From positions 1,376,001 to 1,440,000 of the forward strand of contig CAWGMQ010000006.1 of assembly GCA_963823665.1 (NCBI GenBank): a DNA stretch of 64,000 nucleotides, in the 5' to 3' direction. This DNA is from an uncultured Planctomycetota bacterium. Lineage in GTDB: Bacteria; Planctomycetota; Planctomycetia; Isosphaerales; Isosphaeraceae. The notes beneath the pieces were generated by a model, which saw only the letters and a program-made list of their open reading frames with translations, had not been told where the DNA came from and did no database searches. The position numbers were made by a program, and so were the translations under genes. Positions 4,185-21,402 of the stretch are shown here, piece after piece; the first letter of the stretch is position 1; the number at the start of each line of letters is the position of its first letter.

Positions 4185-4277
4185 GCTAACTGGAACGGTT
4201 TTATCGGAGCGATTTGGCACACACGAAGCAAGTGCGCATGCGTCCGTACCACGATTTGAGACAACGCGTCTAATCCC
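4185..4277 (+). repeat. Dispersed ~93-bp repeat, copy 1
   Basis: Colinear similarity to 17163-17256: GCT.ACTGG.A.GGTTTT...GAAGCA...ATGCGTC...CACGATTTGA.AC.AC. Confidence 0.55.
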
Positions 4278-7200
4278 TGCGGGGAGGAACTTCACCCGCG
4301 GTTGGCCGGTCAGGCGCAGCGGGTGCGACTTCGGTCTCCGGCCAGTCCGGACCCAAGGGCGATGGATCGCCTTGGCAGATAAAGGCGCCCCAGTAGAAGG
4401 GATCGGGGTATTTGGCCTTCATTGCGAGCTGTGCGTGGCGCAACGCCTCGGCGCGGCCTTGGCCGTTCATGAGACGTCGGTAATAGTCGACCATCAACTC
4501 CTGTGTCTGCTCGTCGGGCACTTTCCACAGGCTCATGACCAGGGTCTTAGCCCCTGCCAGGACGAACGCGCGGCGCAGCCCGAAGACGCCTTCGCCGGCG
4601 TGGACCTCGCCGAGGCCCGTATCGCAGGCCGAGAGCACGACTAGCTCGGTGTCCAAGAGGTTCACCCCCGTGACATCCTCTGCGGTCAGCAGGCCGTCCT
4701 CGGCCTCCTCGGGCGCAGTGCCGGCCTTGAGGAAAGTGTTGGCGCCAGCCAGCGCCAGGCCGGAGCGGAGCATCGGGTTCTCCATCTGCGGGCCGGAGAG
4801 CCGACCTGGTGCGAATCCCTCAGCGGCGAACCCGACTGGGTCGACTTCAAGGCTCGGCGCCGCCTGCCGTAGCTCGGCCTGCTGGTCGGGCAGGAAGAAC
4901 CCGTGGGTAGCCAGGTGGAGAATGCGGGGCGAGCGGCATTCGGCCTTCAGCCGGCCCTCCGTCGCCGCGGTGCCCAGTACGGGCCGAATGCCGAGCAGCG
5001 TGGCGACTCGCTGGCCCTCGGCCCGTGTGCCCGGCAGGCGGTGGAAGTATTGTCCGACGTGCTGGCGGTCCATGTCGCGCGAATGGCGGCCGATCGCGCG
5101 AGCTGCCCCGCCGAGGTCGGGCACGGATCGGACGTTCGCCTCGAGGTCGAAGTCCGGATCGGCGAACAAGAGGGGCGAGGCGGGAGCGCCGCTGGCCGCG
5201 ATCCCGAGCCGGAGCGCGTCGCGGCCGCAGCTCAAGTAGCTGATCTGATATCCGTCGATCAGGCGGCTGCCGTTATCGGTGGGCAACACCTCGAATGGAA
5301 GCAGCGACAGGCCGCCGTCGGGGGCGATCAGGAGGCTTGTGCGGCCGGACAGCGCCGACAGCAGCCGGTCAAAAACGGCAGCGCGGAGCTGGCTGCCGAG
5401 CCGCTCCGCCGATGCAGGTGAGGGCTCCTCACACGATTTGGTCATGTCCCGGCAGGCGCGGTCCTCATCCGTACCGGTGACGCCGGCGCGGAAGTCGGCA
5501 ATCATGCGGTCGATCGGCTCGGCATGGCCAAGGTCGATCATCCGCACGTCGTCCGAGTTGCCCGCGCAGGACGAAAGCCACGTAGCGTTCCGGCTGCCAC
5601 AACTTCTCGCCGCGCGCCGGCCTCGCACGGAAGTCGTATACGGGGAACCGGACGAACTCGACGAGGGCGGCGCCCTCGGGCAAGGCCAGAGCCACGGCTT
5701 GGCGGTCGGCGGCGCGGAGCTGCCGCTCGAGGTTCATCTCGGGGACATGCCGGGCCAGCTCGGCTTCCTGTCGTTCCCGCTCGGCCGACCACTCGGCGAG
5801 CCGCCGCCCGTGGGCCTCGCGCCCCTCCGGCCCGGGCCCCGCCAGCGTCGCGCGGGCGACCTGCATCCGCAGGGCGCCCAGCTCCTCGAGCTTCGGTCGA
5901 AGGGCGGGGTACTTGCCTCCCAAGACGGCGTCGCGCTGCGTGGCTGTCGCCTCGGCGCCGATCGCTTTGCGGCTCAGGACGAGGTCGAGAACCATTCGGA
6001 TCGCGGCAGGCGAGTCACCCAGGTGCTTGAGGACGAGGGATAAGGTTTCGTACAGCTTGCTCAGCTTGGTCAGCAGGAACGCGATCCTCTGCCGTTCGGA
6101 GCCGATGCAAAGGATCTGCCCGATCATCCGGTCGTCAATTGCCGCGACCTCTTGAAGCGCGGTCAGTGCCGCCGCGGCTCGGTCGGTGGCTGACAGTATC
6201 AACGCAAGGTTGGTCAGCGCGGCGGCGTAGTTGCGGTGCGTCGCGCCGAGGGCGGTGCGGGTGAGCTCGACGCCCTTTCGGCACAAGGGCAGCGCGGCGG
6301 CGTAGTCCCCTATCCCCTGGTACACGCTCGCCAGGTTGTGCAGGCAGCGGGCGTAGTCGGGATGGGCCTCGCCGAGTGCGGCGTGGGTGATCTCGCGGCC
6401 CGCTCGAGCAGAGGCAGCGCGGCGGCGTAGTCACCCATGCCCTGGTGCACCGACGCTAGGTCATGCAGGCTGGCGGCATAGTCGGGGTGGCCCTCGCCCA
6501 GGGCGGCACGGGTGAGCTCGGCGGCCTCGCGGCACAGTGGCATCGCCGCGGCATAGTCCCCGATCCCTTGGTAGACCGAAGCCAGACTACGAAGGCTTCG
6601 GGCGTAGCCAGGGTGGATCCCGCCCTGAGCGGTGCGGGTAAGCTCGGCGGCCTTGCGGCACAGCGGCAGCGCGGCGGCGTAGTCCCCGATCTCATGGTAC
6701 ACCGCCGCCAAGGTACCCAAGCTCCAGGCGTAGTCGGGGTGGGCCTCGCCTAGGGCGGCGCGGGTGCACTCGGCAGCCCGCTCAAGCAGGGGCCGTGCGG
6801 CGGCGTAGTTGCCAATCGCCCAATGCACCGTCCCCAGGTTATGGAGGCACCGGGCGTAGTCGCTGTGGGCGTCGCCCAAGGCGGCGCGGGTGAGCTCAGC
6901 GGCCCGCTCGCGCAGGGGCAGCGCGGTGGCGTAGTCACCCATCCCCTGGTGCACCGACGCCAGGTCGTGCAGGCTGGCCGCATGGCAGGGGTGGCCCTCT
7001 CCCAGGGCGGCGCTGGTGAGCTCGCTAACCTTGCGGCATATCGGCAGCGCGCCGGCGTAGTTCCCAATCGCCCGGTGCGCTGCGCCAGGCTGTGCAGTGT
7101 CTCGGTGAACCAGGGGTGGCGCTCGCCCCAGCCGGCGAGGATGAGCTCGGCGGCCTGCTCGAGCAGCGGCAGCGCGGCGGCGTGGTCCCCCATCGCGCGG

Positions 7201-7496
7201 TGCACCTGCGCCAGGCTGTGCAGGCTACGTGCATATTCCGAGATTGAGAACAAGTATGCGAGCTCGCTAGAGCCGAATCGCTCTCGGCAGCGAACTATCC
7301 GGGGGTAGTCGGGGCCGTCGCCTCCGAATTGGAAGTGCGCCAGGTCCGCGGCCTGTTGAGCCAGCGGCAACGCCTCTGCCCATCGGCCCTGCGCCGATAA
7401 CGTCGCGACTGATCGTTTAAGCTCGAGCAGGAGCGACTCGGTCCTCTCCCCCGACGCCCCTCCCGCTCTGTTGGTGAAGGAATCGAACGGCGCCAT
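4270..7496 (-). pseudogene. TPR-repeat CHAT-domain (caspase-like) protease, frameshifted
   Basis: Fragments 6750-7496, 6310-6954, 5465-6325 and 4270-5628. 42-aa TPR repeats (HPDYA.SL..LA..Y...GDYAAALPL). CHAT motifs LHLATHGFF, LVVLSACDTGLG and PFYWGAFI with catalytic His/Cys present. Shifts may be sequencing errors. Confidence 0.85.
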
Positions 7497-7676
7497 GGCA
7501 ATCGACTCCCGGTCTCCGGCTCACAGAAAACGTGGTGGTCCGGTAGGCCTGCGGTGTCCTGGAGCAGCCGACTCTCGGGCATGCCTGATCGGATAACTGG
7601 GATTATACGTTGGCTCCCGGACCGACTTCACGTATTAGACCCCCAACTTTCGGAAGGGGATAAGGTGTCAAAGGGG

Positions 7677-7858
7677 AAAAGCTGTCAGGAACCCAATTTG
7701 CCCGAAGGGGAAAAGAAGGGGCAAAGGTGGGAAGGCGCAAAGGTGTCAGGAACCAATTTGTCCGAACTCGAAGCGCGAGCGGGAATAATTCAACGAACCA
7801 CGAAATGCGCGAAACCACACGGAAACGCGTTTGTGGTCAGGTCTCCTCGGGGTCGAAT
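7677..7858 (+). repeat. Dispersed AAGGTGTCAGGAACCAATTTG element, copy 1 (with partial head upstream)
   Basis: 7739-7858 aligns with 21576-21696 and 24244-24313. A degenerate extra head lies at 7677-7706. Confidence 0.85.
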
Positions 7859-8314
7859 GCCGCATGACATCCATTCTGATCAAATCTCGCTCGGTCTTCG
7901 CTCCACACTCGACGAGGTAAGACGCCTCCTCGCCGATCGTGCGCACCGCAACGCGCGCCGGAGGTTCTTCGTCGAGGGCGCGAGAATCGTCGTCCATGCC
8001 CTCGAGACCGGCTTCCACATCGATGCGCTCATCTACAGCGAGAAGCTGTTGATCGCTTGATCGGTGCCTCGCCAGACGGGTCGGCCGATCTCCACCGCTT
8101 CGCCTATCCTCGCCCGACAATCCTCGTCCTCGGCGAGGAGCGCGGAGGGCTCTCGCCGCTCCAGCGTGATCTCTGCTCGGACCTCGTTCGCATTCCGATG
8201 CTCGGTGTCGCTGACTCCCTGAATCTCGCCGTGGCCGGAAGCCTGCTGCTGTACGAGGTCTATCGGGCCAGGTCGGCTCACGACACGAGTGTTCGCCGAT
8301 CCGGCGCACGTTAG
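7857..8314 (+). pseudogene. TrmH/SpoU RNA methyltransferase, internally deleted copy 1
   Basis: N-terminal FFVEG.R.V..AL segment and C-terminal LVLGEERGGLS...VRIPMLGVADSLNLAVAGSLLLYE. The central SpoU motif is missing and the frame is broken at ~8060. Confidence 0.8.
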
Positions 8315-8337
8315 ATATCGCGAAGGATACCACCCCC

Positions 8338-8460
8338 GTGCCACGGGACTCGTTGGCTTGTCGAGTTCTGGACTCACATTTCGGACACTTGAACGGCTGG
8401 CGCGAACACTCGGAGAATTACGGGGTGTCTTTTCGGCAGTTGGCGAGCTTTCTGATGCAG
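8338..8460 (+). repeat. Partial duplicate of 12708-12830
   Basis: Near-identical sequence encoding PR.SLA.R.LDSHFGHL.GWRE.SEN.G.SFR.LASFLMQ in both places. Confidence 0.85.
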
Positions 8461-8702
8461 CAATCCGCCCGTCTGGGCCAAAGGGATAGTTGCCACACAT
8501 CCTTTCGTGGGGCGCAGCGTAGCACGAGCCCGGGCCCGACGGTGTGGATTTCCAATGCTTACGCAGCGCGCCCGCATTCAAGCGCCTCGGAAACGCGCGT
8601 GACGAGCACCGTAGCGCCAATTTTCGCAAGACACGTTCGCGGTCGTACCGCGGAGTAAGGATAATTGATTAAAGGCCCGCGATTGTTTGGACCGAAGCGC
8701 TT

Positions 8703-10277: not shown

Positions 10278-11504
10278 ATGTCCGGTTATGGACCGGACAG
10301 CGCGGCAGAGATGGCTCCGTGGCTCAAGTGTTCCGGTTGGTTAGCCAAGCGGCCCTGGCTCTTTCTCGCCCGGTTCAAGGGCGAGAGCTGGATTCATTGC
10401 ATCGCATCGAAGCCGGGGCTTGTTTCGCTCGAAACGCTCGGGCGCAGCAAACACTTGCAGATCCTCAATGCCGGGTTCGATCTGGGCGAAAATCGGACAC
10501 ACGCTCAGTATCACAACAAGGGAAACATCGCGGCCGAGCTCACGGCTGCCGGAAAAGCGAAAGATCCGCTCGGGGTGCACTCGTTCAAGTCATCGGTCCG
10601 AGTCAAGGCGTTTCTCAAGCAATGCAAAACGGTTCGACACGCGGTCGACGGCTTCTTCGCGGCGCAAGACGCAGTGCTACGCGTGTTATCAGTCATCGAA
10701 GTGAACGGACTTCTTGAGCTGCGGGACGGCCTTGGGCGAGCTGTGAGCGCGGGCGAGCTAGCCGAGATCGGAATTCGATACTTTGTACCGATCACGGCCG
10801 AGGAGGATCCGGCTGGAGTGCGGCTGCAAGCGGCGATCAACACGGGCGACGTGGAGGCGGCTCGCCAGGCGATCGCGTCGGGCGCAAGCCTTGAGTTCAT
10901 TCCTGACGAATTCCGCAGCCCCTTGAGCATTGCCTTCGATGATACGCACCCAGGAGACTGGCGCGGCGTTGCGAAGCTGCTCATCGAGGCCGGTGCACCC
11001 ATCGATGGCTATGATTGGGAGGAGTCGCTGATCTGTTCTCCGATCAAAAACTTGGGGAAGTACGAAGACTCGGTCATCAAACGCATGGAGGCGATGCTCT
11101 CGCTGGGGGCATCCATCGATTCTCGGGGACGGTTGCCTGCTGTAGGGTTCACACCGTTACATCTCGCCGTCGAGAAGAATCAATTGCAGGTCGTGCAGTT
11201 CTTGATCGACGAGGGGGCCGACCTCGACGCACGCGATGTGCACGGTCGCACGCCGCTGGAACTGGCGGAAGATCAGGCAAGTGATGATCTGGAGAAAGAA
11301 GCTGCTGGTGGTGCGAATGACGAGGCTTCCTCTAGCGAGGGAGTCAGCCCTGAATTGACGCCACTCGAACTCTTCGTCAGCAAGTATTCGAGAACGCCAA
11401 GGGAGAGCGCGAGACGACGAATTCAAATCGTGAAGCTGCTGCGAGAAGTCTACGCGCACCGCCAGGCCGACTCACACGGCCCGCCGGCTAAAGTGAAGAG
11501 GTAA
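10278..11504 (+). CDS. Ankyrin-repeat protein
   Basis: GFTPLHLAVEKNQLQVVQFLIDEGADLDARDVHGRTPLELA plus degenerate repeats. Start uncertain (ATG at 10278). Confidence 0.85.
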   Translation: MSGYGPDSAAEMAPWLKCSGWLAKRPWLFLARFKGESWIHCIASKPGLVSLETLGRSKHLQILNAGFDLGENRTHAQYHNKGNIAAELTAAGKAKDPLGVHSFKSSVRVKAFLKQCKTVRHAVDGFFAAQDAVLRVLSVIEVNGLLELRDGLGRAVSAGELAEIGIRYFVPITAEEDPAGVRLQAAINTGDVEAARQAIASGASLEFIPDEFRSPLSIAFDDTHPGDWRGVAKLLIEAGAPIDGYDWEESLICSPIKNLGKYEDSVIKRMEAMLSLGASIDSRGRLPAVGFTPLHLAVEKNQLQVVQFLIDEGADLDARDVHGRTPLELAEDQASDDLEKEAAGGANDEASSSEGVSPELTPLELFVSKYSRTPRESARRRIQIVKLLREVYAHRQADSHGPPAKVKR

Positions 11505-11647
11505 GGACTCAAAGAAGCCACAACGAAGTCTACGCCATCATCTTGCGGGTTCTTGCTTCGCACACTCAGGTCGATACGAGATGTGAGGATGAGGGAAGCC
11601 AATGCCTCGCTCCTCTCAGTGATGAACCAATTGCGGTCTTCCGACAT
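11500..11647 (-). pseudogene. DUF4365-like fragment (second of a tandem pair)
   Basis: MSEDRNWFITERSEALASLILTSRIDLSVRSKNPQDDGVDFVV with a GGAGG RBS. The D.GVD motif is present, then the sequence is truncated against the ankyrin gene end. Confidence 0.55.
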
Positions 11648-11654
11648 TGCGTGC

Positions 11655-11790
11655 CTCCCAGACAGTCGAATGTCGGAAATTTGTCCCCGAGAAATCGCGG
11701 ACGAAAGTACGGCTCATTCCTTCCGCTCAGTTCTGTCACGATGATGACAAAAAATCGCCTGTCCGCGCTCGCCAATGCCGTCTTTGCTCA
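11655..11790 (-). pseudogene. DUF4365-like fragment (first of a tandem pair)
   Basis: LSKDGIGERGQAIF/VIIVTELSGRNEPYFRPRFLGDKFPTFD, with a frameshift in a T run. Truncated. Confidence 0.55.
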
Positions 11791-11866
11791 AGTTCGTACC
11801 CCCGCCAGCACGTTACCCAATCTTTGCACATTGATCATAACGTCCCGGGGCCAAAGAGCACATCCA

Positions 11867-11925
11867 GGGACTACAAGCCACCCACCTTCCGCGAGCGACG
11901 GGTGCATGGCTGCACCTCGAAAGGT
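11867..11925 (+). repeat. 59-bp hairpin-rich repeat, copy 2
   Basis: Matches 8816-8874. Confidence 0.8.
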
Positions 11926-12081
11926 GGTTTCTGGCCTCGCCCCCTCGCCACATCCCTCCCTGACACGTTATCCTTCAAAGGTGGTCCGGCCCTTCAAACC
12001 GAATCCGCTCGCGAACGGTCGCGCACGGGCGTCCCCCACTCCTTGTTCCACGTACCGAGCCCCAGGCTCCCCAAAAGGAGA

Positions 12082-12480
12082 ATGCCGCATGACATCCATT
12101 CTGATCAAATCTTGCTCGATCTTCGCTCCACACTCGACGAGGTAAGACGCCTCCTCGCCGATCGTGCGCACCGCGACGCGCGCCGGAGGTTCTTCGTCGA
12201 GGGCGCGAGAAACGTCGTCCATGCCCTCGAGACCGGCTTCCACATTGATGCGCTCATCTACAGCTTCGCCTATCCTCGCCCGACAATCCTCGTCCTGGGC
12301 GAGGAGCGCGGAGGGCTCTCGCCGCTCCAGCGTGATCTCTGCTCGGACCTCGTTCGCATTCCAATGCTCGGTGTCGCTGACTCCCTGAATCTCGCCGTGG
12401 CCGGAAGCCTGCTGCTGTACGAGGTCTATCGGGCCAGGTCGGCCCACGACACGAGTGTTCGCCGATCCGAAGTACGTTAG
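12082..12480 (+). pseudogene. TrmH/SpoU RNA methyltransferase, internally deleted copy 2 (in-frame, 132 aa)
   Basis: AAAAGGAG RBS. DALIYS is fused directly to FAYPRPTILVLGEE, so the central region is absent. Near-identical to 7857-8314. Confidence 0.8.
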
Positions 12481-12500
12481 ATATCGCAGTGGGGTTGAGC

Positions 12501-12959
12501 ATGGGAAACGCTGTGAAGATCAGGGCGCTGACCGCTCCACCGGCTCCATTCGCCACATTTGACCCGGGCGAATACATGAGCGGATTGGACTTCTACGAAA
12601 CAGACAGCGCAATCAACGACCAGGATCGTGACGGCCTGGCGCAGTTCACACACTTCATTGCCTTCATTGCCCTCCAGGCAAACTCGAGCAAGTGGGCTGC
12701 GTCAATCGTGCCGCGGGGCTCGTTGGCTTATCGAGCTCTGGATTCACATTTCGGACACTTGAGCGGCTGGCGCGAACTCTCGGAGAATCACGGGTTGTCT
12801 TTTCGGCATTTGGCGAGCTTCCTGATGCAGGACTACCCCCCGCGTGCGCCAAAAGGTAAGCCGCCGAACCAGCCGGTGCAGCAAACGGCGACCACAATGC
12901 TGCTTCCCGGTCTCTCTCACGGTCCTCCTGACCCATCGACTCGTTTGGAAGTTCGCTGA
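12501..12959 (+). CDS. Hypothetical protein (cassette-like; 3' end reads into a degenerate attC half)
   Basis: ATG at 12501. Part of it is duplicated at 8338-8460. Confidence 0.5.
   Translation: MGNAVKIRALTAPPAPFATFDPGEYMSGLDFYETDSAINDQDRDGLAQFTHFIAFIALQANSSKWAASIVPRGSLAYRALDSHFGHLSGWRELSENHGLSFRHLASFLMQDYPPRAPKGKPPNQPVQQTATTMLLPGLSHGPPDPSTRLEVR
12863..12919 (+). mobile_element. Truncated attC-like left half
   Basis: GCCGAAC-CAGCC-GGTGCAGC has the same R''-5nt-L'' geometry as 13434. No matching right arm. Confidence 0.55.
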
Positions 12960-13044
12960 TTGACCGGCCGACTTTGGCCCGTCATGATCAATGCGTTCGC
13001 GTGAGAGAATCACAAGTTCGGAGGCGCGAAGAAAAGGGGTTTGT

Positions 13045-13424
13045 ATGGAGCAGGTAGTTGGAATTGGCGGTGTATTCTTCAAAGCTCGCGATCCCAAGGC
13101 GCTCGCCGCCTGGTATCGCGAGCACTTGGGCGTGCCCGTCGAACCAGAGCAAACCTACGGGGCTTTCACGTCTGCCACGGCTGGAGAGCAGGCGGTTTGG
13201 TCTGCCTTCCCTGCCGACACCTCCTACTTTGGTTCGGGCACACAACCGTTCATGGTCAATTATCGCGTCCGGAACCTCGACGCCATGTTGGCCCAGCTCC
13301 GAGCTGCCGGGCGCAAGTAGACGACCGAGTCGAGGACTACGACTTTGGCCGGTTCGGCTGGGCGACCGACCCCGAGGGCAACCGATTCGAGCTATGGGAG
13401 CCGCGCCCACCCGGACAGGGGTAA
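13045..13424 (+). CDS. VOC/glyoxalase family protein (one frameshift near 13310)
   Basis: MEQVVGIGGVFFKARDPKALAAWYREHLG...FMVNYRVRNLDAML and GRFGWATDPEGNRFELWEP. Confidence 0.9.
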
Positions 13425-13433
13425 GCGCACCGC

Positions 13434-13531
13434 GCCGAACCAATGGCTGAAGCTGACCGGGGCCGCCATCCTGGTTTTTCGAGCTTCAAAGTTCTTGCAG
13501 GCGGCCCCGGCAGCTTAGCCGAGCGTTCCGG
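13434..13531 (+). mobile_element. Integron attC recombination site
   Basis: R'' GCCGAAC, 5-nt spacer, L'' GCTGAAGC, stem TG-A-CCGGGGCCGCC/GGCGGCCCCGG-CA, L' GCTTAGC, 5-nt spacer, R' GTTCCGG. Two extrahelical bases; 98 bp. Confidence 0.85.
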
Positions 13532-13591
13532 AGGCGCGCGTGAGAATTGCATGCAACCCGCTGCGAGACGATTCAGCGGTTCTCAATCGCG

Positions 13592-13939
13592 CTACGGGAT
13601 CTCCACGCCTCGGGGCGCCGTGGTAAGGTGCTTGCGGCCGGGCTCGAGGGCGGCGACGAAGACCGAAAGCGCGGCCTTCGAATCGCCACCTCCGCAGGAG
13701 AAAATATCGAGAGCGATATATCGGTGCTCGGGGTAAGTGTGGAACGCGATGTGAGACTCCGAGAGGAGGAGGTAGCCCGTGAGGCCACCCCCTTCGAAGC
13801 GGTGCAGCACCGGAGGGCCGATCGGCTTCATCCCACCCCGACGCGCCGCTAGGTCGAGACAATCGGCCAGCAGCCCGCCATCGACCAGACGGTCGGAGGC
13901 GACGTCGTAAAGGTCGGCAAGCAAGTGTTGACCGATCAT
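13592..13939 (-). CDS. speD: S-adenosylmethionine decarboxylase proenzyme (short pyruvoyl-dependent class)
   Basis: G.HLLADLY, HRFEGGGLTG, LLSESHIAFHTYPE (E|S self-cleavage site) and DIFSCG. GAGGAAAGGA RBS. Confidence 0.93.
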   Translation of the reverse strand: MIGQHLLADLYDVASDRLVDGGLLADCLDLAARRGGMKPIGPPVLHRFEGGGLTGYLLLSESHIAFHTYPEHRYIALDIFSCGGGDSKAALSVFVAALEPGRKHLTTAPRGVEIP

Positions 13940-14022
13940 CGACGATTCCGTCCTTTCCTCTTCCGGTCAGGAAATGCTCCAGGCAACCATCAGGCCGGCG
14001 GCAACGAATCTCGTGTGCAGCA

Positions 14023-15081
14023 TCACGGAGCGAGCCGACTGGTGGGTCCCTCCTCGACTGCCAGGTGCTGCAGGAAGGGAAGCATCGCATTGGCGATCCG
14101 GTCGTAGCTGTACAGGTCGTGTGCACCGGCGTAGACCCGGTTCGCGCCTCCAAATCGCCGCTTGAACTGCGAGAGCCGGCGGTACCTGTGGTCGGCCCGG
14201 TCGCCATGGGCGTCGATCCCATAAAGGTCGTACGTGGCGCAGCCGCGATCGATCGCCGAGGCCATGATGGCGGACTGAAGGGCGGAGGGCGCCATCACTT
14301 CGCGGTGTTCCCGGCGGCTGCCGCCGTAAAGGTACGTGGCGCGGGGGCCGAAGAAGACCGCGATGGCAGCGGCCAGGGTCTCGCCCCGGTACGTCGCGAA
14401 GAAGGCCGCGGCCATCCGGGCGGGGAATAGGATTGCCGCCAGGTCCATCAGGTAGCAAAGCGGCTCCGCGGCGAACCCCTGACGAGCAGCCGTCTCGACG
14501 AGCAGCGGATGGAACCGCGCGGCCGAGGCCGGGTCGGTCGTCACCTCGATTTCGACCCCGTGCCGCCTGGCGAGCCCGACATTGTACCTGCCTTTTGACG
14601 TCATCCGGATGAGGACGCCGGCCATCCCACCCGACAGGTCCACTTCGTTCGTCTCGAACGGGTCGAAATCGACGGGTGCGCGGACGAACCCACGCAGATA
14701 AGGCGGCAGTGGAGGAGCGAGACGGGGCTCGATCCGCCAGAGGATGCTGTCCGTCCGCCGACGCAGCCGGCACGCCTCGCGCCGGATCGCGGCGAAGAGT
14801 ACGGCGGCACGCTCCGGGTCATGCCAGGGCACGAGCGGACCTCCGGGCGTGACCAGGATGCCCGGCCCGTCGAGCGAGCGGGCGGCCTGGAAGATCGCCC
14901 CGCCCTCGATCCGGCCGTCGCGAAACCAGAGCCGCGGATAGACCTCGACCCCCTGGCGCGCCTGGAGCTCGGCCCAGGTCAGCGATTGCATGAACCCGCA
15001 TGCGGGGTTCTCACGCACCGCCCTTTCCCAGGCGTCACGGTACTCGTCGCTGAACTTGGTGCATTGGAGCGGGCCGGACAT
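14023..15081 (-). CDS. FemABX-family (double GNAT) aminoacyl-tRNA-dependent transferase-like protein
   Basis: FMQSLTWAEL, MTSKGRYNVGLARRHGVEI, ATYLYGGS, APSALQ, YDLYGI and FKRRFGG motifs. Confidence 0.85.
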   Translation of the reverse strand: MSGPLQCTKFSDEYRDAWERAVRENPACGFMQSLTWAELQARQGVEVYPRLWFRDGRIEGGAIFQAARSLDGPGILVTPGGPLVPWHDPERAAVLFAAIRREACRLRRRTDSILWRIEPRLAPPLPPYLRGFVRAPVDFDPFETNEVDLSGGMAGVLIRMTSKGRYNVGLARRHGVEIEVTTDPASAARFHPLLVETAARQGFAAEPLCYLMDLAAILFPARMAAAFFATYRGETLAAAIAVFFGPRATYLYGGSRREHREVMAPSALQSAIMASAIDRGCATYDLYGIDAHGDRADHRYRRLSQFKRRFGGANRVYAGAHDLYSYDRIANAMLPFLQHLAVEEGPTSRLAP

Positions 15082-15093
15082 GGGACATCACCC

Positions 15094-16569
15094 CTACCGC
15101 GGCGTGCGGTAGTAGTAGTAGCGGCCGTTGTAGTAGCAATAGTAGTAGTGGTAATACGGATCGGAATACCAGTAGTAGTAGGGAGTGGTCACGGTCCCCG
15201 CACCTCCGGACACGTACCCGCCGCGCTGCTGCATCGGATACGCGCCACCTCCGAAATAGGTTCTACTTCCTGGGGGACTTCCGTGCCCCCCCTTGGCGTA
15301 GGCGGCCGTGGGCATGGCGGTCTGCGCGAGGACGAGTACGAGCATCAATACGCTAAAGAATCGCCAACCCCAGGTCGTGAAGTTGGCCACGGGATCCTCA
15401 CCTCGCGACAGGAACTCGCGGAACCGCTTCAGTTCGGCCACGAGCCGCCCGGGCAAGGCGGCGGCGCGGCGGAGCAAAGCCGAGATCAACCGCCCTAGAT
15501 CGAGCGTGCTTGCGGCCTGAACCAGGTGGCCCGCCCACTCCATGACCAGCTCGCGGGTGACGATCCGGTGACCCAGCGGCACGCACATCAAGAGATCGTC
15601 GATCCCGGTACCGGGCTGGCGATCGAGCCACCCTTTCAGCTTCAGGCTCGGGACGGTCGCGGTGGCCGGCTCAGGCGGCGGGAACGGGTCGTCGAACCCG
15701 AGGAAGCAAACCGTCTCCTCGGCTTCTCCCGGCGCGATCGTGGTCGCATCGAGCAGATACTCATAAAGCGTCCGCCCCGCGTCCGATGCGGGTCGGATCG
15801 TCGTCCGCTGGTCGGCCTGTTGCCGGGGGAATTCGAAGCAGTCCACGAGCCCGGGCCCGTCAAGAGTTCGCACGCCCTCTGGAATGGGTACCGAACGCAT
15901 CTCAACAGGTGTGATGGCTCGATCCGAGGCGAGGAAGAACCCCCAGACGCCATACCCCAGCTCGGCGAAGCTGGGGACGCGCGACCGGCCCGGGAGCGCG
16001 GCGAGGCCGGCCGAGCGGAGGCTCTGGTAGACGCACCAGTACGCCGCGGGGGTCTGGTCCGGCGAGAGCCCATTGAGGGCAAGGATGCCCCCGGGCTCCA
16101 GGTGCGCGCGCAGCTTCTGGAACCAGTCGCGTGTGAACAGACCGCAGTCGGCCAGGGTGCTGGGACAGGTCAGGTCCGAGAAGATCGCGTGGAACGAGCC
16201 GGCCTTCGCGAGCGCCTCCCGGACGTCGGCGACCTCCACGGCGACCCGGTTATCGGCGAGGCTCGACCCGTTCCAGGGGGCGAGCTCGGTGCCCGCAAGG
16301 GCCAGGACCTCCGGGTTGTAGTCGATCACGCGGACCGACGCGACTCCCTCATGCCGAAGCAGCTCGCGGACGAGCAGGCCGTCGCCGCCGCCGAGCACGA
16401 GCAGGTTAAGCGGCCCCTCGAACCTCGCCCGCGCGGCGAGCAGGGCGGGATTGGCGAGCCGCTCGTGGTAAATCGCTTCGTCGTCGGTGTCGAATTGAAG
16501 GTCGCCGCCAAGGTAAAGCCGCAGCCCTCCAGCGCGTCGCTCCAGGACGAGCGTTATGTGCAAGAACAT
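15094..16569 (-). CDS. Polyamine aminopropyltransferase-like enzyme with C-terminal helical, TM and Gly/Tyr-rich extension
   Basis: LYLGGDLQF, DEAIYHE, LVLGGGDGL, IFSDLTCP, LEPGG and PSF...WGF motifs. GGAGGAG RBS. About 230 extra C-terminal residues. Confidence 0.88.
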   Translation of the reverse strand: MFLHITLVLERRAGGLRLYLGGDLQFDTDDEAIYHERLANPALLAARARFEGPLNLLVLGGGDGLLVRELLRHEGVASVRVIDYNPEVLALAGTELAPWNGSSLADNRVAVEVADVREALAKAGSFHAIFSDLTCPSTLADCGLFTRDWFQKLRAHLEPGGILALNGLSPDQTPAAYWCVYQSLRSAGLAALPGRSRVPSFAELGYGVWGFFLASDRAITPVEMRSVPIPEGVRTLDGPGLVDCFEFPRQQADQRTTIRPASDAGRTLYEYLLDATTIAPGEAEETVCFLGFDDPFPPPEPATATVPSLKLKGWLDRQPGTGIDDLLMCVPLGHRIVTRELVMEWAGHLVQAASTLDLGRLISALLRRAAALPGRLVAELKRFREFLSRGEDPVANFTTWGWRFFSVLMLVLVLAQTAMPTAAYAKGGHGSPPGSRTYFGGGAYPMQQRGGYVSGGAGTVTTPYYYWYSDPYYHYYYCYYNGRYYYYRTPR

Positions 16570-16999
16570 ACATCTCCTCCTTCCGCGTTAGTTCCGATCA
16601 AACCCAATCCAATTACTGTGCGTTGCGAAAACAACTGATGTGGCCTCCTCGGCCTCCTCGGCGGAGACGAAGAGCGGTCCCCGATCGAGGATGGCCGTCG
16701 CGCAGGAGGCAGAGCCGGCGTGTCCCCCGGAACAGCACAACCCAACCCCCGGGGGTGGAGTAACGAAGGCGGGTCGAGGAGCAAGAGGAAGAACAGGATC
16801 ATCGGAGGGACGCCGGGTTCGCCAGGCTGATCACCCTCCCTACAACCAGTTCGTCCCGCGTCGGTGTTTTGTGCGAGTGTTTCGCGAGATTTTCATTCTC
16901 AAGGCTTAAGTTCCGGGGACACCAGACGTAATTCTCACAGCCAGCATGAATGAGCTTCGCCGAGGTGGCGGCGGCCGCGCTGGCATACGACACGAACGG

Positions 17000-17113
17000 T
17001 TAGCCTCTGCCCCGCACCAATTGCATGATCGCCGCCCTGACATCCGGCGTCACGTAGTGCCATTTCGCGACCAGTTCCTGCAGTGCCTCCTCACTGCAGA
17101 CATCGTGATTCAT
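17000..17113 (-). CDS. Small 37-aa protein or remnant (L..L...W......R.AI..LV motif)
   Basis: MNHDVCSEEALQELVAKWHYVTPDVRAAIMQLVRGRG. Below the ORF track cutoff. Confidence 0.35.
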   Translation of the reverse strand: MNHDVCSEEALQELVAKWHYVTPDVRAAIMQLVRGRG

Positions 17114-17162
17114 CGGATTGGCTCGGAGAGTTGCCCTTGGTCGAGTCAGGCGCGAATGGCAC

Positions 17163-17256
17163 GCTCACTGGCATGGTTTTGTCCAGAGCTATTCGGCTCG
17201 CATGAAGCATGCATTTATGCGTCTCTCTCACGATTTGAAACGACAGATCCAACCCC
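17163..17256 (+). repeat. Dispersed ~93-bp repeat, copy 2
   Basis: Colinear with 4185-4277. Confidence 0.55.
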
Positions 17257-17703
17257 CGATTTCGTGCGTCGTTGATAGCAGTACGCGCAGCCGCTGCCCG
17301 ATCCCACGCATGTCGATTTCAGTGGTGAATTCCCGAAGGGCGTTTTTCCCGAGCAATTCGTCGCTCACCCTCCAAACGACCGCGCCGTCGCGCGGCCCGC
17401 TGCGTCGATCTGGGCAAAAAATGCACCCTCCTCGCTTTGTTTGCCCGTATCCCCGACGCGCGTCCGTGTCCGTGCCGAGCAACGCAAGCTCTGCCGGAGT
17501 CCAACGAAGGAAAAACGCGGGAACCCCGATCCGCTCTCGCTTGGCGTGAACGCAGGATGGAGTCCTTCCGAAGTTGAGTTTAGCGCCTGCGACCCCCCTG
17601 TGCCGATTCGATGGGCGTCGTGCATCGGCATTTCGCAGATTTGCGCCTGCGCATGAGCCCGAATTCCGAGGAGACCATTCGCCTCACACTCAAATTCCAT
17701 CGC

Positions 17704-20700
17704 CTATCTCACGACCGTGGAGAACGGTTTTTCGCTCGACTTGCCGTCGGCGGCGACGATGCCCGCTTCCACCACGACGTCCACGGCACCCTTGAAGGGT
17801 TTTTTGAGGTTGATCGTCACCGATTCCGCGTGGATGTTGTAGGTGACGAGACTGAACTTGACCGGTTTGGTATAGACCGTCTTGTGATGCTTCTTCACCC
17901 CCGAGAACAGGCGGTAGAAGGCCATGTTGGTCGCGGAGCCGAAGTCGAGCGGCTCGTTGAATCCGACGGTGATCGAGGTCAGCCCCTTACTGGAATGGCT
18001 CACTTTGACGCTCCCTGTGACTTGCGGGGGCGGCTGGTTGGGGGGAGGCGGCGGAGGGGGCGGCGGCGGTCCCAGCACGGTAATCGAAGTCGGAGTCGAC
18101 GACACTCCTCCTTCGTCTGCGGAAGCCGTGATCATGTAGTTGCCCGGATTGTTCGTTGACGCGCCAGGGCGCTCGATCAACAGGCCGGAGAAGTCGGCCA
18201 CGCCGTTATGGGCCATCATCGAGACAACGCCTGTGTTGGAGCTCCCCAGTCTGGCGCCGTTCATGTTGCCTGTCAGTGACAAGGATACAATGCCGTCGAA
18301 CGCGGTATCGACTTTCCCCTGAGTTTCGACGGCCACGTCGATGCTGAAGGTCGCACTCGTGGAAAGCGGGCCCGTCGGAGACTCGATGATTGCGAGCTGC
18401 ACGGTCTGCTGGGTGCTGCTCCCGAAGGTAACCGGCCCGCTGGTTGGGCCGGCCGATCCGGGGCCAGGGCTGGCGCCGGGAAGGCCGGCAGCGCCGGCCG
18501 TGGCAGGGCTGCCGGCCGGCCCGGCATCGCCATTACCCGCCTGTCCGCCTTCTCCGGTGCCGCCGGCACCGCCGGCGCCGCCAGCGCCGGGTCCGCCGGC
18601 ACCGCCGATCGGGCCGGCTCCGCCGCCACCACCCCCGGCGCCGCCCACGCCGCCGATGAGGGTGCCGCCTGTCTGCGAGGGGCTGCCCGGCGGGCCCGTG
18701 CCGACTATTACGCTGACGCTGAGAAGTGTGAGCTGGCCGCCCGTCACATAAAAGTCGCCACCTTCGGCAGCCCCTCCCGCGCCCCCGGTACCGCCGGCGC
18801 CGCCATTCCCTGAGGCGCCTGCGATTCCGCCTGCGCCGCCGCGGCCGCCATTGCCGCCGGCGCCACCGGTCTCGCCGTTGCCGCCAGCCCCGCCGATCCC
18901 GCCCTTGCCGCCCCGAGCAAGTCCCGTGACTGCGCCATACCCCGCACCGCCGGAGGCACCGGTCAAGCCTTGGCCGCCGGCCCCGCCCTGGGCGGTCTCG
19001 CTGGTGAAGTTGAAGTTGTCGAGGGTCAGTGTGACCGAACCGCCGGAGACCGCGACTCCGCCGCCGGCGCCCGTTCCGCCCGCACCCCCCGCGCCGGCGG
19101 GGCCTCCGCTGCCCCCGGCTCCGGCGGCGGCCGCAAATCCGCCGTTGCCGCCACTGCCGCCGTTGCCGGCGGGCCCGGTCGCACCGGCGCTCCCAGGTGT
19201 ATGACCGGGGCCGCCCGCTCCGCCGGCCCCGCCGCTGCCGCCATGTTGGCCGAAGGGCCCGCCGTTACCGCCGGCGCCCTGGCGACGACCACCGCCGCCC
19301 TTGCCCGCGTCCCCGCCCCGAGCGTGGTCACCCATGAGGAGCGAGGTGTTCAGGTTCAGCGTGCCACCGGCCACGAAGACGGCCCCCCCGGCTGCCATTC
19401 CGCCGTTGGCGCCTGCGCCGCCACCGCCGGCGTTGCCGCCGTTGCCGCCTCGACCGGCCGCGCCGCCGGCCGCGCCTGCGCCACCGTTACCGCGGTAGCC
19501 GCCAGTGCCGCCAGCGCCGCCTGGGCCGCCGCTGCCGCCGGCGCCGCCGGCGCCGCCCGAGCCAGGCACTCCACCGTTGCTGCCGTGACGGATGTATGAG
19601 CGCGAGCCGGAGCCAGGGCCGCCCGCGGCCGAATTATCCTGGAATTCGGCCTCGCTCTCGCTGACGGCGACCTGCAGGGCGAGAGTCCCGGCCCCAACAT
19701 AAAGTCCACCGCCTTGGGCGGAACCGCCGTTGCCGTTTCGGCCCCCGTTGTTACCCACACCGCCACCGCCGCCGGCACCGCCGGCGCCACCGCCGCCGCC
19801 CTTGCCGCCAGTGCCGTTGGTCGCAGCCGCGCCGGCACCGCCGGCGCCACCGTTGCCGCCGTTGCCCGCAGTTCCGCCGCCGCCGCCAGCGCCGCCGCCA
19901 CCGGCGGTCCCAGCTTCTGCGCTATTGGCGATGATGCCGCCGCCCGCGATCGTGAGCTCGCCCCCCGCGATGTAGACGCCCCCTCCCCACGCATTCGCAC
20001 CATTCCCCCCCTCGCCGGCCTTGCCGCCGTTGCCGCCGTTCACTCCGTTGCCGCCGATTCCGCCCATACCACCCGGCCTGGCCCCAGACGCGGCGTTGCT
20101 GCCGTTGCCTCCATTTCCGCCGTTGCCGCCCCCGCCGCCATCTCCGCCAGCCCCGCCTGCGAATCCAAGCGCACCATTCCCAATGATCGTCGAGTTTGTC
20201 AGGATGAGCCGGCCGGCCGCCTGATAGATGCCACCGCCGGCACCCGACCCTCCGGCACCACCGTTGCCGCCGGCACCACCCGTGGCGCCGGGCTCTCCGG
20301 GTCCGCCATTCATCCCGTCGCCGCCGCCGCCGCCGTACCCGCCGGTACCTCCATTAGCCCGGTTCTCTTTAACCAACGAGCCCGTCAAGGTCAGTTGGCC
20401 GGCCGCCTGGTAAATGCCACCGCCAGCAGCCGATCCTCCGGCGCCGCCGGCGCCACCTGACTCCACAGGCTTGCCCACACCGCTGCTCGTCCCGCCGCCG
20501 CCGCCGCCGCCGTTACCTCCTTTGGCCAAGTTAAAACTAACGGCTGAGCTGACCAGGCTCAGTTGGCCGGCCGCCAGGTAGATGCCGCCCCCTTCCGCGT
20601 TGCCGCCGTCACCGCCGCGACCTCCGGGTTGACCGCTATCTCCCAGCGCGCCCTTGGCGCCGGCGGCTCCCGACGCCCCGTTCGAACCAAGATTTGCATT

Positions 20701-21225
20701 GCTGAGCGTCACTTGCCCGCCATCGATCAAGATCCCGCCCCCGAGCGCCGCAGTGCCGCCGAGCACGCCGCCGTCATGCGCAGCGCCATCCGTGATTGTC
20801 ATGTCTTTGAGCACGACTGCCGTGGTCGCCGAACCGGTCCCGACGATCTCGAAGATCCGCGTGTTGAGCGCGGCCGAGCCCGATATGACTGTGCTCAAAG
20901 GCGACGTCCCCTGGCCCTCGATCGTCAATGTCTTCGGAGTGCTCGTCGCGTTGGTGATCTCCAGTTGGCCGGCCGCCGTGTCGGTGAGTGTGATCGAAGC
21001 CGACAGCTCGATGATGTTATTGGTGAAGCTGTTGGTGTCCGCCGCGGCGATGTCGGCGCGCAGGGCGCTCTCGGTCGCAACGTTCGCGAAGATGTTCGGG
21101 TTCAACACCGTGCGCGTCTCCAGACTCTCGGGCATCAGCCGGAGTGATCGCCGGCGCCGTTCATCGAGGTGTCGAGAGGATCGTTTCGCCGTGAACAATG
21201 CGAGCCGCCGCGTCTTGTTCAACAT
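17704..21225 (-). CDS. Secreted Gly-rich (PGRS-like) beta-helix protein with Pro linker and C-terminal Ig-like domains
   Basis: R-rich leader ending PESLETRTVL, long GGxGGxGG tracts, a poly-Pro linker and C-terminal VKKHHKTVYTK. ATG at 21225 preferred; the track ORF starts at 21282. Confidence 0.85.
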   Translation of the reverse strand: MLNKTRRLALFTAKRSSRHLDERRRRSLRLMPESLETRTVLNPNIFANVATESALRADIAAADTNSFTNNIIELSASITLTDTAAGQLEITNATSTPKTLTIEGQGTSPLSTVISGSAALNTRIFEIVGTGSATTAVVLKDMTITDGAAHDGGVLGGTAALGGGILIDGGQVTLSNANLGSNGASGAAGAKGALGDSGQPGGRGGDGGNAEGGGIYLAAGQLSLVSSAVSFNLAKGGNGGGGGGGTSSGVGKPVESGGAGGAGGSAAGGGIYQAAGQLTLTGSLVKENRANGGTGGYGGGGGDGMNGGPGEPGATGGAGGNGGAGGSGAGGGIYQAAGRLILTNSTIIGNGALGFAGGAGGDGGGGGNGGNGGNGSNAASGARPGGMGGIGGNGVNGGNGGKAGEGGNGANAWGGGVYIAGGELTIAGGGIIANSAEAGTAGGGGAGGGGGTAGNGGNGGAGGAGAAATNGTGGKGGGGGAGGAGGGGGVGNNGGRNGNGGSAQGGGLYVGAGTLALQVAVSESEAEFQDNSAAGGPGSGSRSYIRHGSNGGVPGSGGAGGAGGSGGPGGAGGTGGYRGNGGAGAAGGAAGRGGNGGNAGGGGAGANGGMAAGGAVFVAGGTLNLNTSLLMGDHARGGDAGKGGGGRRQGAGGNGGPFGQHGGSGGAGGAGGPGHTPGSAGATGPAGNGGSGGNGGFAAAAGAGGSGGPAGAGGAGGTGAGGGVAVSGGSVTLTLDNFNFTSETAQGGAGGQGLTGASGGAGYGAVTGLARGGKGGIGGAGGNGETGGAGGNGGRGGAGGIAGASGNGGAGGTGGAGGAAEGGDFYVTGGQLTLLSVSVIVGTGPPGSPSQTGGTLIGGVGGAGGGGGGAGPIGGAGGPGAGGAGGAGGTGEGGQAGNGDAGPAGSPATAGAAGLPGASPGPGSAGPTSGPVTFGSSTQQTVQLAIIESPTGPLSTSATFSIDVAVETQGKVDTAFDGIVSLSLTGNMNGARLGSSNTGVVSMMAHNGVADFSGLLIERPGASTNNPGNYMITASADEGGVSSTPTSITVLGPPPPPPPPPPNQPPPQVTGSVKVSHSSKGLTSITVGFNEPLDFGSATNMAFYRLFSGVKKHHKTVYTKPVKFSLVTYNIHAESVTINLKKPFKGAVDVVVEAGIVAADGKSSEKPFSTVVR

Positions 21226-21240
21226 CCCGGTAATCCTGTG

Positions 21241-21402
21241 AATGAGGGGCGCCAACCGGCTGTCGAGCCGGGCGGCGACCATCCCAAGTAGCCGGTTGCG
21301 GTGCCGCGCCAGAAGTAGCTCTAGCTCCGGCCCGCGGCCGCCAGCCTTGCAGAGTAGTTCCTCGGTTTCCGGATCGTCCAGCGCCTCAACACGATCAACC
21401 CG
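21241..21402 (-). pseudogene. N-terminal remnant of a Planctomycetaceae-type sigma-70/ECF factor
   Basis: DPETEELLCKAGG...LELLLARHRNRLLGMVAARLDSRLA matches the ETEELL..A...LL.RHR.RL..MV..RLD.RL start of TIGR02984-like sigmas. In-frame TAG at 21403-21405. Confidence 0.65.

Follow-up and report, generated by a model that had tools for sequence, protein, structure and literature searches.

An aminopropyltransferase-like protein with an internal signal-like segment and an invariant lysine: a possible enzyme-substrate fusion in a planctomycete gene cassette

Why would an apparently cytoplasmic enzyme end in a hydrophobic helix and a short tail rich in glycine and tyrosine? The question is raised by a gene at 16569–15094 (minus strand) of a 64,000-nucleotide stretch, hereafter the window, from an uncultured planctomycete of the family Isosphaeraceae (GCA_963823665.1, contig CAWGMQ010000006.1, positions 1,376,001 to 1,440,000). 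The gene is an open reading frame (ORF) of 491 amino acids (aa) whose in-frame end, 15372–15094 (minus strand), translates as quoted in a preliminary description made from the letters. That description, of a hydrophobic helix, an A-x-A motif and a lysine-led, glycine-rich segment with 15 tyrosines in the last 29 residues, is exact. A-Y-A occupies residues 423–425, and the 66-aa tail that begins at Lys426 contains 18 Tyr, 13 Gly and no other lysine; the tyrosine density of the last 29 residues has a binomial P of about 7e-16 at 3% Tyr. The fusion protein was found once in this genome. We consider the chances about even that it is an enzyme-substrate fusion within a lysine-modifying envelope cassette, in which Lys426 would be modified by one or both of the cassette's enzymes.

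The conservation of the junction between enzyme and tail is the first line of evidence. A distant profile search of 1.84 billion representatives returned 109 proteins, and 74 full-length sequences were aligned: the window's own, 10 close homologs, one from Omnitrophota and 62 from the distant search, the 63 distant rows having 29–40% identity over residues 1–427. Seventeen columns are invariant, 15 of them in the catalytic domain; the other two are Pro420 and Lys426, at positions -6 and +1 of the predicted cleavage site. Position +1 is Lys in 74/74 and Arg in 0/74, and Arg predominates in all 12 other columns with a basic majority. Position -1 is Ala, Gly or Ser, -2 is Tyr or Phe, and -3 is Ala, Val, Leu, Ile or Gly in all 74 rows, and +2 is Gly in 72. 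No other block of the protein is as well conserved as the junction, whose top-residue share is 0.66 vs 0.55 in the catalytic domain. A profile ending before the hydrophobic segment recovered 32 distant proteins, of which 30 have the motif with its lysine and two are fragments that stop short of it, and when the linker of one short-tailed member served alone as the query, all 22 proteins recovered, several of them under cyanobacterial names, had the junction and its Lys. Since linker-restricted searches still recover the motif with Lys, the junction is kept without being selected for. The 29 tails of the tyrosine-rich type hold one further Lys vs 134 Arg in 2575 residues (a count over related rows, given without a formal test), and the first 400 residues of these proteins hold 151 Lys vs 976 Arg. 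A lysine that is both fixed and solitary points to chemistry at its side-chain amine. For signal peptidase I, small residues are required at -3 and -1 and a lysine is not.

The preliminary description had asked whether homologs keep an AYA-K motif ahead of a variable tail. In the homologs the hydrophobic segment, the lysine and small residues at both -3 and -1 persist, and the tails differ. The description had also named an artefactual fusion as an outcome that would undo its proposal. An artefact or a chance joining was rejected, as homologs carry the same junction: residues 270–491 match 53 relatives, eight of 120 further genomes in the family hold the linker and junction, and the junction is kept in 63/63 distant full-length homologs. 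Overlapping contig pieces (15289–15484 and 14831–15318) also cover the junction; neither reaches 31 letters on both sides of Lys426, and for this reason they are not used as proof of the fusion. Contigs of two metatranscriptome studies lie over 30/30 and 29/30 bins, with no silent stretch for comparison, and transcription is not claimed.

Judged by sequence pattern and conservation, segment 397–425 is a putative signal peptide. The most hydrophobic 15-mer of the protein begins at residue 404 (mean Kyte-Doolittle value 2.26); over the 74 rows the hydrophobic core has a hydrophobicity of 3.0, and Lys plus Arg are commoner before than after it in 57. Pattern counts agree with signal peptidase I, namely a basic n-region, a hydrophobic core, a polar c-region with a helix breaker and small residues at -3 and -1. 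Two other signal types do not fit, the window protein having Trp-Arg at 402–403 in place of the twin arginine of a Tat signal, and all 74 rows having Lys at +1 in place of the Cys of a lipoprotein signal. AlphaFold2, run on the 74-row alignment (pTM, the predicted template modelling score, 0.75), predicts a synthase fold, a helical linker and one helix at 397–418, then a disordered glycine-rich stretch and two weak strands at 475–488. A hydrophobic segment within the first 35 aa is present in 0/74 fused rows, which together with the basic bias ahead of the core places the catalytic domain inside and the tail outside. N-in/C-out insertion is thus very probable on these sequence features, and signal-peptidase cleavage after A-Y-A is probable, at a lower confidence. 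Internal cleaved signals occur in bacterial polyproteins.

The catalytic domain is related to polyamine synthases and departs from them at one telling position. Residues 10–271 match spermidine-synthase-like families, and a PF01564 score of 62.4 bits (cut-off 22.9) makes the protein a family member. The more specific models fall short: PRK03612, the best NCBIfam model, gives 181.8 bits vs a cut-off of 472 and matches at profile positions 257–513 only, and the SpeE equivalogs TIGR00417 and PRK00811 give 80.4 vs 249.55 and 85.1 vs 260 bits. A Foldseek search with the predicted model ranks aminopropyltransferases first (E 1.5e-17), and the best matches in the PDB are thermospermine and triamine synthases. 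Asp63 of the GGGDG-type motif and the catalytic Asp132 are retained in 74/74, one row having Ala at the third Gly. By the motif criterion of an acidic residue in GxG(D/E)G and a catalytic Asp after strand 4, the domain is a candidate aminopropyltransferase; this acidic residue distinguishes aminopropyltransferases from methyltransferases according to two sources (bioRxiv 10.1101/2022.10.03.510680; PMC11107197). With the spermidine, spermine and thermospermine synthases (PF01564; 1uir, 6bq2) the domain has in common the fold, a GxGDG motif of the type associated with decarboxylated S-adenosylmethionine (dcSAM) and the catalytic Asp. It differs from them in its scores far below the equivalog cut-offs, in a 220-aa extension with a membrane segment and in the loss of the second Asp of D-x-x-D-P. 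That residue is replaced in 74/74, mostly by Val, Phe, Tyr or Cys (Cys135 in the window), whereas it is present in the aligned 6bq2 and 1uir and in 79/79 of the seven-helix relatives discussed below. The second Asp contacts the far amine of putrescine; because it is lost, the likely acceptor is a mono-amine, and a lysine still internal to the uncleaved chain would be one. Transfer of an aminopropyl group to something other than a polyamine is, on these motifs, likely.

Two further genes accompany the fusion. The protein encoded directly behind it is a member of the FemAB family (PF02388, 94.6 bits, cut-off 24) and matches FemX structures at E 3.5e-9, its C-terminal domain aligning with FemX (Weissella FemX, 4ii9, 1ne9), which aminoacylates a lysine side chain, as the name of model NF047883 has it. 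Unlike FemX it lies far below that equivalog cut-off (52.9 vs 500 bits), is patchy in occurrence and is tied to the cassette; one copy was found in the window's genome. The third gene encodes S-adenosylmethionine decarboxylase, SpeD (TIGR03330, 91.3 bits, cut-off 75.65; PF02675). The femAB-type gene stands directly after the fusion in 13/13 loci with downstream sequence, 12 of which are probably one lineage and one of which is an Omnitrophota record at 36% identity, and speD is present in all 11 fused loci that extend far enough to include it. A search of 60 family genomes with the FemAB protein gave three positives, exactly those that carry the fusion. Eight family relatives have the same three-gene order, and their similarity to the window ends near 13550 and 16907 with unrelated flanks, which together indicate a portable three-gene cassette.

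Comparison with a related operon type supplies the second line of evidence. A GTDB-wide scan with catalytic-domain patterns left, among the matches listed, 80 loci: one fused (L002, Omnitrophota) and 79 of the PRK03612 type, in which the synthase domain follows seven membrane helices. In 48 of these 79, one ORF per locus just upstream and on the same strand ends in Gly-Lys; such ends occur in 48 of 1188 closed ORFs in that position vs 12 of 6192 elsewhere, and ends in GGK vs GGR number 36 vs 2 upstream and 1 vs 8 elsewhere. The Gly-Lys proteins sit about 0.2–1.5 kb upstream of the enzyme (L004–L081). Most are 50–70 aa long, with a basic-hydrophobic N-terminal segment and an end rich in Gly, Tyr, Ser and His, and belong to no Pfam family; others are DUF4247 proteins ending in Gly-x-Gly-Lys. 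The window's own phylum has a Gly-Lys end in 23 of 29 shorter seven-helix loci (L106–L134). In the seven-helix enzymes Lys and Arg are enriched after helices 2, 4 and 6 (62 rows), an arrangement that puts the catalytic domain of these enzymes on the outer side of the membrane, where the lysine of the peptide also lies. The Gly-Lys-ended peptides of the related operons are independent comparative evidence in favour of the earlier idea of a fused substrate.

The two types appear to be neighbouring branches. A 65-row tree of the catalytic domain puts 31 fused rows in one branch next to the seven-helix rows (support 89/93; recovered in 90% of 200 bootstrap trees), with the root unsure because the outgroups are long. 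The seven-helix operons (PRK03612 with DUF350/YjfL, DUF4178, a DUF4247 or Ctha_1186 lipoprotein and AdoMet decarboxylase) are the closest catalytic family and resemble the fused loci in the GGGDG motif, SpeD and an exported glycine-rich polypeptide with a terminal lysine. DUF4178, DUF350 and SpeD are neighbours of both types: locus L085 reads DUF4178, fusion, FemAB, DUF350, SpeD, and L002 reads DUF4178, fusion, FemAB, SpeD. Unlike the seven-helix enzymes, the fusion has no N-terminal membrane domain and its catalytic domain would face in, whereas theirs faces out; its lysine polypeptide follows an internal signal with Lys first, whereas theirs is separate with Lys last; and it lacks the second Asp and has a FemAB partner (13/13 vs 0/79 loci). 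We suggest from these sequence comparisons that the fusion is a differently built second branch of a known, unexplained aminopropyltransferase system. Seven-helix operons with DUF350, a lipoprotein and DUF4178 are described by Ravi et al. 2024 (PMC11237479), who also mention aminopropylation of other substrates; 'FemAB' did not occur in one supplement file of that paper, its main text lying outside this search. According to PMC12803844, which cites Li et al. 2019, the membrane-fused proteins of bacteria were shown to play no part in making spermidine or spermine. The features of the window's cassette are collected in Table 1.

Table 1. Features of the fusion gene and its cassette in the window (window positions; aa numbering of the 491-aa protein).
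Feature	Position	Strand	Basis or remark
Spermidine-synthase-fold, aminopropyltransferase-like domain	15757..16569	-	aa 1–271; PF01564, PRK03612, alignments to 6bq2/1uir, AlphaFold2 and Foldseek
Conserved helical linker domain, Arg-rich helices ahead of the membrane segment, no Pfam family	15382..15756	-	aa 272–396
Internal signal-peptide-like segment	15295..15381	-	aa 397–425; Arg403, hydrophobic core 404–415, Gln/Asn(-10), Pro(-6), A-Y-A
Lys426 (+1 after the predicted cut), proposed acceptor residue	15292..15294	-	invariance across aligned homologs
Gly-rich part of the tail, predicted disordered	15184..15294	-	aa 426–462; length varies widely among relatives
Tyr-rich end, weakly predicted beta-hairpin, usually one Cys, clade-specific	15094..15183	-	aa 463–491 and stop
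FemAB/FemX-like putative aminoacyl-tRNA-dependent transferase, 352 aa	14023..15081	-	PF02388; begins 12 nt past the fusion stop
S-adenosylmethionine decarboxylase (SpeD), 115 aa, E-S-H self-cleavage motif	13592..13939	-	TIGR03330, PF02675
Upstream stretch travelling with the cassette: GGAGG and decayed di-haem oxidoreductase remnant	16570..16907	-	

How might these parts work together? SpeD, from its family membership, would supply dcSAM in the cytoplasm, and the N-terminal domain, also cytoplasmic, would pass the aminopropyl group to an acceptor other than putrescine. Segment 397–425 would insert N-in/C-out, and signal peptidase I would cut behind A-Y-A; the tail would then exit with Lys-Gly as its new N-terminus, free in the window's subclade and membrane-anchored or bearing a folded domain in others. 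The proposed acceptor is the side-chain amine of Lys426, which would be aminopropylated, aminoacylated by the FemAB protein, or both. Modification would be simplest in cis while the chain is still cytoplasmic: the tether would give an already folded enzyme access to the lysine in the short time available, and this would be the point of the fusion. The protein would then be a cytoplasm-facing, 'inside out' counterpart of the seven-helix operons, which encode enzyme and Gly-Lys protein as two genes. More speculatively, the cell would end up with an exported peptide bearing a lengthened amine arm, whose use might be tethering or cross-linking within the envelope. The finer steps are held more loosely than the fusion of enzyme and substrate itself. 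That an aminopropyl group is added before an aminoacyl group, both ahead of export, is a tentative ordering; equally tentative is a self-modifying export precursor which aminopropylates the lysine of its own passenger, has it capped by FemAB with a tRNA-borne amino acid and releases it with an N-terminal aminoacyl-aminopropyl-lysine arm that mimics a peptidoglycan cross-bridge.

Several points weigh against an enzyme-substrate fusion. The caveat of the preliminary description that an exported peptide would be separated from the donors stands, as both enzymes and their donors are inside and the lysine ends outside. We know of no citable precedent for modification before translocation, Lys(+1) is near the hydrophobic core and may be shielded by the export machinery, and an enzyme with one turnover per protein is costly. 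The fixed aromatic residue at -2, together with the fixed lysine, could serve another recognition event. Apparent frameshifts affect the cassette in 6 of 8 family relatives, three of these in the tail; since unrelated genes of the window show similar breaks, assembly indels are plausible, decay being the alternative. Genome context covers one family and one Omnitrophota record, with none from the cyanobacterial-type or long-tailed members. Among the seven-helix loci 31 of 79 are without a Gly-Lys ORF, some as the locus ends early; DUF350 and DUF4178 are not in the window's cassette and were not found in its genome (92% complete). The relation between the fusion's N-terminal lysine and the C-terminal lysine of the Gly-Lys peptides is an analogy, with no sequence homology shown.

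The topology problem disappears if the protein is a membrane-anchored enzyme with a separate acceptor, decorating together with FemAB a metabolite at the cytoplasmic face (a wall precursor, a lipid or a small amine), while the tail serves as a scaffold and its lysine acts only outside, for instance as the terminal lysine of Braun's lipoprotein does in transpeptidation. FemX-type enzymes, the closest solved relatives of the cassette FemAB, normally act on peptidoglycan precursors, the membrane protein DUF350 of L085 might serve to transport a product, the folded domain and coiled-coil hairpin of the long tails resemble a structural envelope protein, and the preference for Lys over Arg is still explained. 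The femAB-type gene is missing from 57 of 60 family genomes, which argues against a housekeeping wall enzyme, and a separate acceptor leaves unexplained both the persistent fusion of the enzyme to a lysine-led polypeptide in every clade and the fact that the seven-helix enzyme is accompanied by a peptide with a terminal lysine on the very side that its catalytic domain faces. We regard it as possible and rather doubtful. Another view keeps the segment uncleaved as a permanent anchor; P-x-x-x-(Y/F)-(A/G)-K-G would then serve recognition or packing where the chain meets the outer face of the membrane, and in the proteins that form a hairpin the enzyme would simply be anchored twice. It draws on the second membrane helix at the tail end (7/37 close homologs, 21/22 cyanobacterial-type proteins), on Leu or Ile at -3 in 10/74, which is less favourable to signal peptidase, and on conservation at -10, -5 and -2 beyond what the peptidase needs. 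Against it, the hydrophobic core is short, at about 12 residues, and gives way to a polar stretch with Pro(-6), Asp or Thr at -5 and a small -1 residue in 74/74. This is the layout of a cleaved signal, and a permanent anchor seems unlikely.

Ordinary polyamine synthesis, for instance of a spermine type, with the tail as an accessory or a decaying appendage in the window's subclade, would fit the usual pairing of SpeD with an aminopropyltransferase of intact GGGDG, the polyamine synthases among the best structural matches, the name 'spermine synthase' given to cyanobacterial members and the frameshifted relatives. It is improbable in view of the SpeE equivalog scores, the loss of the second Asp throughout the alignment, a junction better conserved than the catalytic domain and a linkage to FemAB that has no place in polyamine synthesis. 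Least probable is that the tyrosine-rich peptide is itself the purpose of the system, as the core of a ribosomally synthesized and post-translationally modified peptide (RiPP) or as a self-assembling coat peptide cross-linked through dityrosine. Such ends do keep a steady pattern in the 29 of 37 close homologs that have them (Cys near the end, Pro-Arg terminus), with a weakly predicted beta-hairpin and atlas look-alikes at 0.82–0.87 that are leads only; neither the sister subclade nor the cyanobacterial-type clade has them, nor do most long forms, and the shared cassette has no oxidase, P450 or radical-SAM gene. This last explanation may describe what the subclade's tail does after export rather than what the enzymes do.

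Returning to the enzyme-substrate fusion, two known systems offer partial parallels. The fungal enzyme NHMT is described in a preprint as a seven-helix spermidine-synthase-like protein; once the signal peptide of secreted LPMOs (lytic polysaccharide monooxygenases) has been cleaved, it methylates their N-terminal His (bioRxiv 10.1101/2022.10.03.510680). By analogy, the fusion would likewise be a synthase-fold enzyme acting on the residue that such cleavage exposes; unlike the fusion, NHMT as presented there is a methyltransferase without the acidic motif residue, works in trans and after cleavage, and has an N-terminal membrane domain. The preliminary description had also drawn a conceptual parallel with borosin fusions. 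Borosin precursors join an enzyme and a peptide substrate in one chain with a variable C-terminal core, and the fusion, with a proposed substrate, resembles them in this; they differ in fold and chemistry, in release by a dedicated protease where an export signal is proposed here, and in modification at many backbone sites where the fusion has a single fixed lysine. The enzyme domain of borosins is a tetrapyrrole-methylase-type N-methyltransferase. The fusion is not a borosin, having the fold of spermidine synthase and no borosin-type methyltransferase among Pfam hits to E 0.1. No description of the fusion was found in the open-access literature, subscription papers and preprint supplements being outside its scope, nor any open-access paper joining FemAB with spermidine synthase.

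Membrane aminopropyltransferase operons linked to AdoMetDC are widespread. Two architectures, one fused with Lys first and one separate with Gly-Lys last, both point to a terminal lysine as the candidate acceptor. It is the invariant lysine, more than the tyrosines, that carries the value, reducing an operon-wide question to one testable residue. If the proposal is true, it would add a new protein modification, namely lysine aminopropylation of proteins in bacteria, a Fem enzyme outside peptidoglycan synthesis and a polyprotein of an enzyme and its exported substrate, and it would name an acceptor class (a terminal lysine beside glycine) for the DUF350/DUF4178 aminopropyltransferase system.

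The tails themselves are diverse. Residues 270–491 match 53 proteins, and among the 37 full-length close homologs aligned, 29 have a tyrosine-rich end in tails of 66–142 aa (Cys near the end in 27, a Pro-Arg terminus in 18), seven have a second hydrophobic helix with basic residues and one is apparently frameshifted. Across the 74 homologs tail length runs from 38 to 496 aa, commonest near 390, some of the short tails being perhaps contig-end fragments; the tail is tyrosine-rich, closes with a second membrane helix, as it does in 21/22 cyanobacterial-type proteins, or carries a folded domain of some 390 aa. For one of the long forms the model predicts a disordered glycine-rich start, a beta-rich domain and a coiled-coil hairpin. 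For this exported domain Foldseek gave no match at E 0.001 and the atlas search was blank, and the VIA matches (Z up to 10.8) are confined to the coiled-coil hairpin, a common shape. Atlas look-alikes of the short tail all fall below 0.9, small unnamed proteins and DUF6515 at 0.82–0.87 being leads only. As tails vary freely between clades, the richness in tyrosine is clade-specific and the conserved element is the junction lysine. The weight that the preliminary description gave to tyrosine is accordingly not borne out, such ends belonging to one subclade and the shared three-gene cassette having no cross-linking enzyme. Stand-alone tail genes were sought and rejected: 20 short proteins matched the last 102 aa, and all 10 of those examined still contain some of the junction and seem to be fragments or re-starts. 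The 157-aa protein P0151 combines a DUF4178-type start with the linker, the junction and a second helix at the end, apparently through a deletion that brought the upstream gene and the tail together.

Named carriers of the fusion are Anabaena sphaerica FACHB-251, Kovacikia minuta CCNUW1 and Stenomitos frigidus ULC029, the public names of the cyanobacterial members reading 'spermine synthase'. Metagenomes gave five loci, viral contigs none, and 150 plasmid records none that covers 80% of the query. A profile of linker and tail (A4) had no match in genome samples of 251, 251 plus 201 (one phylum), 201 and 201, which are samples and do not establish absence; it does find the genome G421, itself part of the profile's alignment. 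In the window's own phylum, sampled with 301 genomes, the window's genome alone matched into the linker, as did G421 alone in its phylum (201 sampled).

Further observations concern the surroundings of these loci. A Shine-Dalgarno-like GGAGG precedes the fusion start. The stretch upstream of the fusion folds no better than shuffled sequence (z -1.34) and shows no sigma-70-type promoter, and an Rfam scan of 11500–18000 returned nothing. The di-haem oxidoreductase remnant survives further in L097, L098 and L100 than in the window; the longer one in L097 (5378–5893) matches PF06537 at E 9.4e-11, and the window's own remnant ORF is without a match. Tail frameshifts in L099 (about 7300–8530) and in protein P0045 extend the fusion into the FemAB frame, giving a 433-aa tail in L099, by an assembly indel or as a triple fusion. 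In L002 an ORF directly behind speD (6956–8383) appears reverse-transcriptase-like by its motif. Nine proteobacterial seven-helix operons (L005, L006, L009, L023, L037, L066, L068, L077 and L080) are without a Gly-Lys-ended ORF; several of them have a DUF4178-type protein with an acidic end and an upstream protein with a SHOCT-like end.

Elsewhere in the window, blocks at 7855–8470 and 12080–12840, about 4.2 kb apart, are duplicates with pieces 89–97% identical and contain a truncated SpoU/TrmH methylase fragment; further duplicated pieces lie at 7739/21577 and 8816/11867. A glyoxalase-like gene at 12991–13424 is split by an apparent frameshift near 13310, and a TPR-CHAT protein at 4270–7496 (minus strand) extends over several overlapping frames, apparently as one frameshift-broken gene (CHAT E 3e-70; TPR repeats). 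The 1192-aa protein at 17704–21282 (minus strand) has a long Gly-Ala/Gly-Gly-Asn repeat region, which resembles PE-PGRS-type repeats, and an Ig-like domain at its end. The region 29208–60022 (minus strand) alternates between Ser/Thr-kinase-TPR-like genes, three in number and similar to one another, and large surface proteins of a beta-helix or polymorphic-repeat kind.

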